13,400 nucleotides of DNA from the UHGV virus genome UHGV-0365817; one strand, given 5' to 3'. The notes beneath the pieces were generated by a model. That model was given only the letters and a program-made list of their open reading frames with translations, did not search any database and was not told the origin of the DNA. This DNA comes from a virus. A program made the position numbers and the translations under genes. Below are positions 5,170 to 9,741 of this stretch, piece after piece (position 1 is the stretch's first letter; every line of letters begins with the position of its first letter).

Positions 5170-5201
5170 GCCCTTTTTCAGGGCTGTGATGTGTAAGAGC
5201 G
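5170..5201 (-). promoter_or_regulatory. nutR (boxA + boxB) N-utilisation site
   Basis: On the minus strand, boxA CGCTCTTA (5201..5194) is followed by boxB hairpin GCCCTGAAAAAGGGC (5184..5170), immediately downstream of the cro stop. Confidence 0.8.
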
Positions 5202-5208
5202 GTGTTAT

Positions 5209-5418
<210 letters not shown>

Positions 5419-5433
5419 TTAGTACATGCAATT

Positions 5434-5503
5434 ATTATCACCGCTAGAGGTAAAACAGTCAACACGCACGGTGTTAGATATTTATCCCTTGCGGTGATAG
5501 ATT
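5434..5503. promoter_or_regulatory. Right operator OR1-OR2-OR3 with divergent promoters pR (towards cro) and pRM (towards cI)
   Basis: Three 17-bp operator sites: OR1 5436..5452, OR2 5460..5476, OR3 5483..5499. pR on the minus strand has -35 TTGACT (5462..5457) and -10 GATAAT (5439..5434). pRM on the plus strand has -35 TAGATA (5475..5480) and -10 TAGATT (5498..5503), with the cI ATG at 5510 (leaderless). Confidence 0.9.
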
Positions 5504-5506
5504 TAA

Positions 5507-6223
<717 letters not shown>

Positions 6224-6341
6224 CCACAATACAACCTTGTTGTCGCAAAAAGATCGCATATGCGATTGTTTATTAGAAATAGAAATCGCCATATAGGCGA
6301 ATAGTCGATCTCAGCGCATAACATAAGGAAATCAATAACAT

Positions 6342-7247
6342 ATGCCAAATTTACCGATGGGCGGATCGCAGGGTGAATTACCCTTAGTACCTACAGTAGA
6401 AGTTGTTGCTGATGGCATTCCTATGGGGGTGCTTAATGATGGAACCCCTTATCTAACTCTTTACGGTTTAGCCAAATTATGTGGCATAGATGAAGCACCT
6501 CTTCGAATGTTTACATCTAACTGGGAGACTGAAAAAAATAAGCCAAGAGGACAAAAAGTAGCTGCATACTTAGCTGAGAAAGGATTTAACAACGTTGACC
6601 GACTGTATACCCGCGTCATAAATAGCTCAAACGTTGAAACACATGCTTATCCTGACTATGTTTGTATGGCTATCCTCCGTTACTACGCTCTAGATGCCAC
6701 CAATTTTGATAGGTCAGTCGCAATAGGTAATTTTGTTCGCTTGGCTGAGTACACGCTTAAGCGAATGATTTATGAAAAGTCAAATTACAACCCAAATGCT
6801 TCAATAGATATCTCATTCGAGAACTATAGAGCAAGGATTAAGCTAAACGATCAGATACCGACAACTCATTTTGCAGTATTCAGAGAGATAGCTGACATTG
6901 CCATGAACCTGATCGGAGGAGGATTCCCAATGGATGACACCACATCTTTGGATGGAAGTGTTGGAATTCACTGGGGAAAGTATTGGACAGCTAATGGGCT
7001 ATCTGAGAAATTCGGGGAAAGGGTGCAGTACCCACATCTATTCCCCGAAAATTACAGGCAGTCAGCTGCAAATAAGCATATAACAGCTTGGATTTATCCT
7101 ATTGAGGCACTTGGCGTGTTCAGAAAATGGCTACACGATAATTACGCAATGGAAAAACTGCCAAATTACCTTGGGAACAAAAAGATTAGTAATGCCTCCG
7201 AGCTATTAGAGTCGATAAAAAAACCAGCACTCCCAAATAAGCATTGA
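6342..7247 (+). CDS. Hypothetical 301-aa protein in the rexAB slot; candidate phage-exclusion / abortive-infection protein with a possible KilA-N/Bro-N-like N-terminus
   Basis: Long ORF with an ATG at 6342 preceded by AAGGAA. It is not RexA or RexB by sequence. It looks more AT-rich by eye than the flanking cI and N genes. The N-terminal segment (...DGTPYLTLYGLAKLCGIDEAPL...) resembles the conserved core of KilA-N/Bro-N DNA-binding domains. It is followed by its own terminator. Confidence 0.8.
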   Translation: MPNLPMGGSQGELPLVPTVEVVADGIPMGVLNDGTPYLTLYGLAKLCGIDEAPLRMFTSNWETEKNKPRGQKVAAYLAEKGFNNVDRLYTRVINSSNVETHAYPDYVCMAILRYYALDATNFDRSVAIGNFVRLAEYTLKRMIYEKSNYNPNASIDISFENYRARIKLNDQIPTTHFAVFREIADIAMNLIGGGFPMDDTTSLDGSVGIHWGKYWTANGLSEKFGERVQYPHLFPENYRQSAANKHITAWIYPIEALGVFRKWLHDNYAMEKLPNYLGNKKISNASELLESIKKPALPNKH

Positions 7248-7258
7248 TCTCCACCACA

Positions 7259-7285
7259 ACCCGGCATCTGCGCCGGGTTTTCTTT
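7259..7285 (+). terminator. Rho-independent terminator after the immunity-region cargo gene
   Basis: Inverted repeat acccggc / gccgggt (7259..7265 and 7272..7278) with loop atctgc, followed by TTTTCTTT, 12 bp after the stop of ORF 6342..7247. Confidence 0.65.
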
Positions 7286-7425
7286 GCCTAACGCCCCCAA
7301 AAAACACATAACCAATTGTATTTATTTTAAAATTAATAGATACAACTCGCTAAACATCGCAATTCAGATCTCTCGATCACCTTCCCAATCCACACAACCC
7401 TGCAAAAAATAAATCTATATAAAAA

Positions 7426-7495
7426 ACATACAGATAACCATCTGCGGTGATAAATTATCTCTGGCGGTGTTGACACAGATACCACTGGCGGTGAT
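7426..7495 (+). promoter_or_regulatory. Left operator OL3-OL2-OL1 and pL promoter
   Basis: OL3 aaccatctgcggtgata (7426..7442), OL2 tatctctggcggtgttg (7446..7462), OL1 taccactggcggtgata (7470..7486). pL has -35 TTGACA (7460..7465) and -10 GATACT (7483..7488), with a start site near 7495. Confidence 0.9.
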
Positions 7496-7538
7496 ACTAA
7501 GCGCATCAGCAGGACGCACTAACCACCATTGAAGGTGA

Positions 7539-7569
7539 GGCTCTTAAAAATTTAGCCCTGAAGAAGGGC
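7539..7569 (+). promoter_or_regulatory. nutL (boxA + boxB)
   Basis: boxA-like GGCTCTTAA (7539..7547) followed by boxB hairpin GCCCTGAAGAAGGGC (7555..7569), between pL and N. Confidence 0.75.
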
Positions 7570-7679
7570 AGCATTCAAAGCAGAAAGCTTTGAGTAGCGC
7601 GAAATGCAGCTGCAAGACAGCAACCGTGGGGATAAGCATCACGGCGCGTTACTCAAAGCTAACTGACAGGAGAATCCAG

Positions 7680-9504: not shown

Positions 9505-9576
9505 GCGCGGCGTTACCGCATACCAATAACGCTTCACTCGAGGCGTTTTTCGTTATGTATAAATAAGGAGCACACC

Positions 9577-9741
9577 ATGCAATATGCCATTGCAGGGTGG
9601 CCTGTTGCTGGCTGCCCTTCCGAATCTTTACTTGAACGAATCACCCGTAAATTACGTGACGGATGGAAACGCCTTATCGACATACTTAATCAGCCAGGAG
9701 TCCCAAAAAATGGATCAAACACTTATGGCTATCCAGACTAA
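9577..9741 (+). CDS. cIII: CIII protein (FtsH inhibitor that stabilises CII)
   Basis: 54-codon ORF absent from the track (under 60 aa): ATG at 9577 preceded by AAGGAG; translation [54 protein letters not shown] matches lambda CIII. Confidence 0.85.
   Translation: MQYAIAGWPVAGCPSESLLERITRKLRDGWKRLIDILNQPGVPKNGSNTYGYPD

Follow-up and report, generated by a model that had tools for sequence, protein, structure and literature searches.

A Probable BstA-aba Abortive-Infection Cassette in the rexAB Slot of a Lambda-like Phage, with a Putative aba Element across the bstA Start Codon

Introduction

The DNA analysed here (UHGV virus genome UHGV-0365817, 13,400 nucleotides, hereinafter referred to as the window) contains a lambda-like early region in which rexA and rexB have given way to one gene of 301 codons. 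Judged by homology, this gene is a member of the already described BstA family, and the cassette is very probably a BstA-aba abortive-infection system as in the BTP1, E. coli and Klebsiella prophages. A direct repeat on the two sides of the bstA start codon is proposed as its putative aba (anti-BstA) self-immunity element, and the alignment of alleles identifies the gene as a chimera of two E. coli alleles.

The BstA family was defined by Owen et al. in 2021 (Cell Host Microbe, PMC8585504). Abortive infection with a block of phage DNA replication was reported for BstA from BTP1, E. coli NCTC10963 and K. pneumoniae, and a conserved position of bstA downstream of the prophage repressor was described, together with its synteny with lambda rexAB (PMC8585504). 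For the E. coli protein, BstA-Ec, both phage defence and cognate self-immunity were found; in BTP1, defence is exerted by the protein alone, and the deletion of bstA leaves lysogeny frequency and induction unchanged (PMC8585504). The aba element of BTP1 consists of 63 bp, namely 29 bp upstream and the first 34 bp of bstA. Relative to the ATG, its CCCGCC direct repeats are at -28 and +28, and a change of one base in either copy abolishes the function of the element. The minimal element takes in a single base ahead of the first copy and is closed by the final base of the second. It is active as DNA, needs no transcription and operates in trans at high copy; each BstA has its own cognate aba (PMC8585504). 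Both the BstA family and its occurrence in the rexAB slot have been published, so that the system in the window is an already known one.

Borders of the Slot between cI and OL

The features that define the slot and its flanks are as follows:

5510..6223, + strand: cI repressor gene, from the ORF list, with 231 of 237 aa of its protein identical to lambda cI
6326..6334, + strand: Shine-Dalgarno region AAGGAAATC, read from the sequence, ending 7 nt before the ATG
6342..7247, + strand: bstA CDS, 301 aa plus stop, ATG start, from the ORF list and from profile and tblastn homology
7258..7289, + strand: Timm, the intrinsic terminator found in lambdoid immunity regions, with stem-loop 7258-7279 and a T run
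7436..7498, + strand: OL3-OL2-OL1 operators and pL, right-hand border of the slot, from the operators as read and from lambda homology

About 72% of the whole window can be aligned to lambda, at about 98% identity, and it is oriented as a lambda-like early region with cI, N and the pL operon on the + strand. The original prediction had described a discrete cassette swap relative to lambda, and BLASTN against lambda bears this out: window 5201-6219 corresponds to lambda 38249-37231 with 96.9% identity, covering cro, OR and cI, the homology then stops, and it resumes at 7258, where window 7258-7592 corresponds to lambda 35826-35496 with 89% identity. Because the alignment is broken between 6219 and 7258, lambda 35827-37230 (rexA and rexB, 1404 bp) has been replaced by window 6220-7257 (1038 bp). 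Within this slot, cI stops at 6223 and bstA starts at 6342 on the same strand, with a spacer of 118 bp between them. A lone ORF with its own Shine-Dalgarno sequence and terminator had been expected here, and all three parts are present, that is, the ORF, AAGGAAATC and a hairpin at 7258-7279. In the terminator scan this hairpin has 8 pairs, of which 6 are G-C, is followed by a T run and lies 11 nt past the bstA stop codon; it is homologous to the annotated Timm of phage CL707 and to the lambda DNA at the rexB stop. On the right, the promoter scan reads pL as TTGACA-17-GATACT at 7470-7498. Further along the same strand, Rfam Lambda_thermo, the cIII thermoregulator, is found at 9564-9622 (88.5 bits, E=6e-21), located 5′ of cIII as in lambda.

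The claim that the slot ORF is unrelated to RexA and RexB also stands: BLASTN gives no alignment with lambda 35827-37230, there is no Rex model among its PADLOC matches, and the slot holds a single ORF rather than a two-gene operon homologous to RexA and RexB. The one claim that fails is that the ORF is more AT-rich than its neighbours. It has a GC content of 0.415, compared with 0.467 for the whole window; among windows of equal length, 12% have this value or one below it, and the adjoining gene sieB is lower still at 0.391. AT-richness as a sign of horizontal acquisition was rejected, the GC content of bstA being not distinctive.

At the left edge, the final bases of the repressor gene (about 25; …GGCC[AT]GAAGAGACGTTTGG…; window 6200-6223) also occur in the O111-type prophage (2013C-4538 locus 2426-2500), the repressor of which is otherwise unrelated to the window cI despite this common gene end. 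Cassettes in the slot are probably exchanged with this conserved gene end as the left crossover site.

Identity of the Slot Gene

It had been suggested that the gene is an abortive-infection cargo resembling BstA, and homology from four sources confirms it. The PADLOC BstA profile matches with E=3.6e-106 (residues 8-286 of the protein, aligned to positions 4-281 of the 292 in the profile), and PHROG 6287, 'BstA abortive infection system, replication inhibitor', matches with E=5e-135 over residues 5-301. In the tblastn search against phage genomes, the protein has 43.5% identity with BstA of Salmonella phage BTP1 across 97% of its length, and further homologues were found in Klebsiella, Salmonella and Pseudomonas phages. 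In the large-database search, PF26567 (BstA-like C-terminal domain) is present on 113 database homologues bar one short fragment, and members are named 'BstA-like C-terminal domain-containing protein' in UniRef. The homology thus extends over both the N-terminal and the C-terminal domain, the gene is prophage-borne and located directly downstream of the repressor, as in the family, and in an alignment of 83 sequences the window protein conforms in every invariant column. The signal upstream is also shared, since AAGGAAATC precedes bstA in CL707 as well and the BTP1 counterpart, AAGGAAAATC, is near-identical. Scans of the 301-aa protein against Pfam-A, in a copy older than PF26567, and against NCBIfam gave no match even at E<=10, and a sequence search of the PDB with a 7-sequence profile gave nothing at E<=1; no solved BstA structure was found.

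The AF2 model has a mean pLDDT of 87.1, with residues 1-12 disordered. The protein consists of two parts: an N-terminal domain that is DNA-binding-like, having weak matches in the fold search to antirepressor, 'repressor domain', KilA-N, Bro-N, APSES and winged-helix DNA binders, and the C-terminal BstA domain PF26567, for which the fold search returned no convincing match. The N-terminal matches could be taken to mean that the gene encodes a DNA-binding regulator of the KilA-N/Bro/Ant type, for instance an antirepressor or a transcription factor, which acts in the lysis-lysogeny control of the phage and has no role in defence. However, the homology to BstA is full-length, and such a regulator is hardly credible. 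Membership of the BstA family is the reading followed below.

The Putative aba Element

The proposed element, its repeat copies and a related upstream word are located as follows:

6306..6373, + strand: putative aba self-immunity DNA element, from positional homology to BTP1 aba and the family repeat peak
6307..6316, + strand: non-coding upstream repeat copy, GATCTCAGCG, 35 nt before the ATG (-35)
6364..6373, + strand: downstream copy of the direct repeat, GATCGCAGGG, +22 from the ATG, in codons 8-11 of the disordered N-terminal tail
6252..6267, no strand assigned: third GATCGCA word (6252-6258) in the perfect palindrome ATCGCATATGCGAT (6253-6266), then a T-rich tract, 55 nt upstream of the 6307 copy

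The two copies GATCTCAGCG and GATCGCAGGG are equal at 8/10 positions and are spaced by 57 bp, with the Shine-Dalgarno sequence and the start codon between them. A 5′-overlapping element with terminal direct repeats is therefore present, the agreement with aba being one of architecture only. The register is close to that of BTP1: counted from the conserved protein motif MGV[LM]xDGxP, the copies are at -116/-59 nt in the window and at -115/-59 nt in BTP1. The repeats of the other loci compared, by distance from the ATG, are as follows:

BTP1: CCCGCCA, -28 / +28, spacing 56
CL707 / 2012C-4431: ATCCCT, -34 / +23, spacing 57
2013C-4538: GATCGC, -35 / +22, spacing 57

From positional homology and the family statistics given below, the repeat at about 6306-6373 is taken as the putative aba. 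As the published mapping of aba concerns BTP1 and does not extend to the BstA-Ec and BstA-Kp loci, the repeat is equated with aba outside BTP1 by inference. In the structural model, the codons of the disordered residues 1-12 overlap the downstream half of the element, which would fit a stretch of the gene that is free to double as a DNA signal.

Several other explanations of the details of this region were considered. A defective aba was suggested by the G/T mismatch of the upstream copy (GATCTC vs GATCGC), which resembles aba-mut1, a change that kills the BTP1 aba. This was rejected, because the two changes do not coincide when the words are aligned; moreover, many natural enterobacterial loci have the same pattern of four matches, a mismatch and two or three matches, so that the mismatch in the window is no sign of a defect. 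The sensing of replicating DNA by Dam methylation through GATC is not general, as the BTP1 aba and many other repeated words are without GATC. A general third copy of the repeat, some 55-60 bp upstream of the other two, is not convincing: an exact one is confined to the window and the O111 allele, and BTP1, S137 and a further locus have one that differs at a single position. The feature at 6252-6267 may itself be a weak hairpin or attenuator, or an extra protein-binding site. The spacer between cI and bstA contains a second perfect palindrome, TCGCCATATAGGCGA, at 6286-6300, and ATCGC[AC] occurs four times within 6253-6370.

The upstream copy at 6307-6316 is a variation hotspot among otherwise identical E. 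coli copies (6311, 6313 and 6315). Within the patch discussed below, the window departs from the O111-type allele at three positions, two of which (6311 and 6313) fall in this copy; so does one (6315) of the four differences from ST131 strain ZH063 over 1202 bp. Being variable between near-identical strains, the upstream copy may be under weak constraint.

The 56-57-bp Repeat across the BstA Family

For the family-wide comparison, 80 further bstA loci from species-representative genomes and four from other phages were anchored on MGV[LM]xDGxP, and exact direct repeats of at least 6 nt, at spacings of 20-120, were scanned in the 200 nt upstream of the anchor in the 80 unique loci. A peak was found at spacings 56 (20 repeats) and 57 (29 repeats), which makes 49 observed against about 5 expected; the other spacings between 20 and 120 have 0-12 repeats each, with a mean of 3.2. 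For 56/57, shuffles gave 5.07 +/- 2.21 (maximum 13) and three control regions of the same loci gave 5-7. When mismatches were allowed, the best 10-nt self-match had a spacing of 56/57 in 35/80 loci, where about 2 were expected. An exact repeat of at least 6 nt at this spacing is missing from half of the 80 loci. Among 39 loci there are 32 distinct repeated words, and because the word differs between loci, both copies must change together. No start codon was found after the downstream repeat copies.

From alpha- to gamma-proteobacteria, bstA is preceded by a conserved Shine-Dalgarno-like word, AAGGAAATC. Many alpha-proteobacterial loci include this word in the 57-nt-spaced repeat, whose units reach up to 14 nt, and their downstream copy is separated from the conserved protein motif by about 10 nt more than in enterobacteria.

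It should be considered whether the gene is a BstA homologue in which the 56-57-bp repeat acts in translation or as some other cis feature of the 5′ region, for instance a doubled Shine-Dalgarno-like word, with aba elsewhere in the locus or absent. Of the rival readings this is the serious one, and it bears on the repeat alone. This is suggested by the Shine-Dalgarno-like sequence being the repeated word in those alpha-proteobacterial loci, by the imperfect copies of the window and the strain-to-strain variability of the upstream one, and by the published placement of aba in the E. coli and Klebsiella loci, which goes only as far as 'the locus including upstream sequence' and reports no repeats (PMC8585504). 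Nevertheless, the minimal aba of BTP1 is bounded by its repeats, is killed by one-base changes and is active as DNA without transcription, and the register in the window is within 1 nt of that of BTP1. A translational role is also at odds with the lack of a start codon past the downstream copies and with a word that varies by locus in both copies together. On balance, the repeat is less likely to be such a feature, and its interpretation as aba is preferred.

As for the whole family, the chances are about even that aba is a two-site element of co-varying 6-14-nt repeats, 56-57 bp apart and bracketing the ribosome-binding site and start codon, with the downstream repeat lying in the codons of a disordered N-terminal tail, and that this element is swapped as a module together with an N-terminal reader, the C-terminal effector being interchangeable. 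No report of family-wide aba repeats or of such a modular swap, and no later work on aba repeats or the BstA mechanism, was found in the searchable literature.

Mosaic Structure of the Allele

The alignment of alleles shows one recombinant patch:

6221..6665, + strand: O111/2013C-4538-type patch of 445 bp, comprising the intergenic region and bstA codons 1-108

Within 6221-6665, the window differs from the 2013C-4538/O111-type allele solely at 6311, 6313 and 6323, and its identity to the CL707/2012C-4431-type allele is about 50-84% per 50-nt bin. Outside the patch the relation is reversed: over the end of cI (6101-6220) and again over 6666-7430, a handful of mismatches separate the window from the CL707/2012C-4431 type, while identity to the O111-type allele is roughly 50-93% per 50-nt bin. 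At the protein level, residues 109-301 are identical to the CL707/2012C-4431 allele and overall identity is 92%; all 24 amino-acid differences from the CL707 type are in residues 2-94. By this alignment, the bstA of the window is a chimera of the two alleles.

The joint movement of the aba-bearing spacer and the variable N-terminal part as one block of 445 bp is what the alignment suggests, and it would be expected of a protein that recognises aba by its N-terminal domain and uses the C-terminal one as effector. The edges of the block may also just mark stretches of homologous crossover, at the conserved end of the repressor gene and in the conserved segment coding for PDYVCMA.

The allele type of the experimentally studied BstA-Ec can be deduced in part. 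Its cloning, and the transfer of the locus into P22, used the forward primer GTCCGCAGCAAGAGACTTTATACG (PMC8585504). The bases directly after the cI stop of CL707 and 2012C-4431 match this primer exactly, and the window does not contain it; from this exact match, BstA-Ec (NCTC10963) would be of the CL707 type at least at its 5′ end.

Occurrence in E. coli

The bstA alleles in E. coli genomes fall into three groups. The 1202-nt region 6224-7425 is identical in four complete E. coli chromosomes, has a match of at least 99% in 23 complete genomes and is covered to at least 80% in 43 of 5426 genomes. In E. coli CP53, the identical DNA lies within a lambdoid prophage adjoining ybhC. In recent RefSeq records, PGAP names the 99.7%-identical copies 'BstA C-terminal domain-containing protein'.

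Damaged copies also occur, and they raise the reading that the cassette is in decay and has lost its function or expression, its ORF being intact by chance. A frameshift in E. coli LR-17-1 cuts BstA to 246 aa, ECO2947 has an IS1 within the region matching the window, and the CP53 prophage that carries the identical bstA DNA has an IS5 in cro (CP53 locus 17998-18978). Against this, the window has a full-length ORF with all the invariant residues, its Shine-Dalgarno sequence and terminator are intact, its AF2 model is confident (pLDDT 87), and the 23 complete genomes mentioned above keep the 1202 nt at 99% or more, so that decay is highly improbable and a working BstA cassette is the reading retained. 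Since some lysogens have a disrupted bstA, as the LR-17-1 frameshift shows, the gene is dispensable.

Comparison with Known Systems

The nearest studied system is that of BTP1. The two share the same two-domain protein family, the position directly downstream of a CI-type repressor, a short spacer bearing a Shine-Dalgarno sequence, a terminator past the gene, and a direct repeat that straddles the start codon in a register within 1 nt. They differ in the repeat, which is CCCGCC with a spacing of 56 and perfect copies in BTP1 but GATC[T/G]CAG with a spacing of 57 and 8/10 equal positions in the window, and in the host phage, which is P22-like for BTP1 and lambda-like for the window.

The allele of CL707/2012C-4431 (EF120459.1, WP_000026554.1) is closer, being identical or nearly so in residues 109-301, in the terminator and in the cI and OL DNA on either side. 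In CL707, bstA occupies the same slot of a lambdoid immunity region, and in Klebsiella, Pseudomonas and Salmonella phages it is also located downstream of a cI-type repressor. CL707 and, to judge from the primer match, presumably BstA-Ec differ from the window in being of the other allele type over the intergenic region and codons 1-108; the repeat of CL707 is ATCCCT. Given the different repeat words and the rule that each BstA has its own cognate aba (PMC8585504), the window and CL707 alleles may not cross-protect.

RexA-RexB of lambda occupies the same slot between cI and Timm/OL, presumably with the same pRM-driven expression in the lysogen, and like BstA it is a prophage-encoded abortive-infection system. 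There is no sequence similarity between them, and BstA is one soluble protein, whereas RexA-RexB is a sensor plus a membrane protein. Their modes of action also differ, in that BstA blocks phage DNA replication and RexAB collapses the membrane potential (PMC8585504).

Proposed Mechanism

In the lysogen, bstA would be co-transcribed with cI from pRM, and the transcript would end at Timm; lambda rexAB is likewise transcribed from pRM. A consensus scan of the + strand of the 118-bp intergenic region finds no promoter of bstA's own. The weak hairpin with its T tract at 6252-6277 could lower the read-through from cI.

By analogy with the tested homologues, BstA would remain idle until a sensitive foreign phage replicates, and would then gather at the phage DNA and block its replication, so that the infected cell dies and no progeny are released. 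During induction of the prophage itself, its own aba, proposed at about 6306-6373, would neutralise the cognate BstA and thereby spare the phage from its own defence. The abortive-infection phenotype and the phage range of the window BstA are likewise presumed from its relatives.

Significance

The window adds one more lambdoid prophage with BstA in place of rexAB, and the gene is detected by the existing defence-finder models. For the family, a candidate aba may be located in any bstA locus by a sequence rule, namely two repeats that co-vary and straddle the start codon at a spacing of 56-57 bp, and the natural chimera provides a direct means to ask which half of BstA recognises aba.
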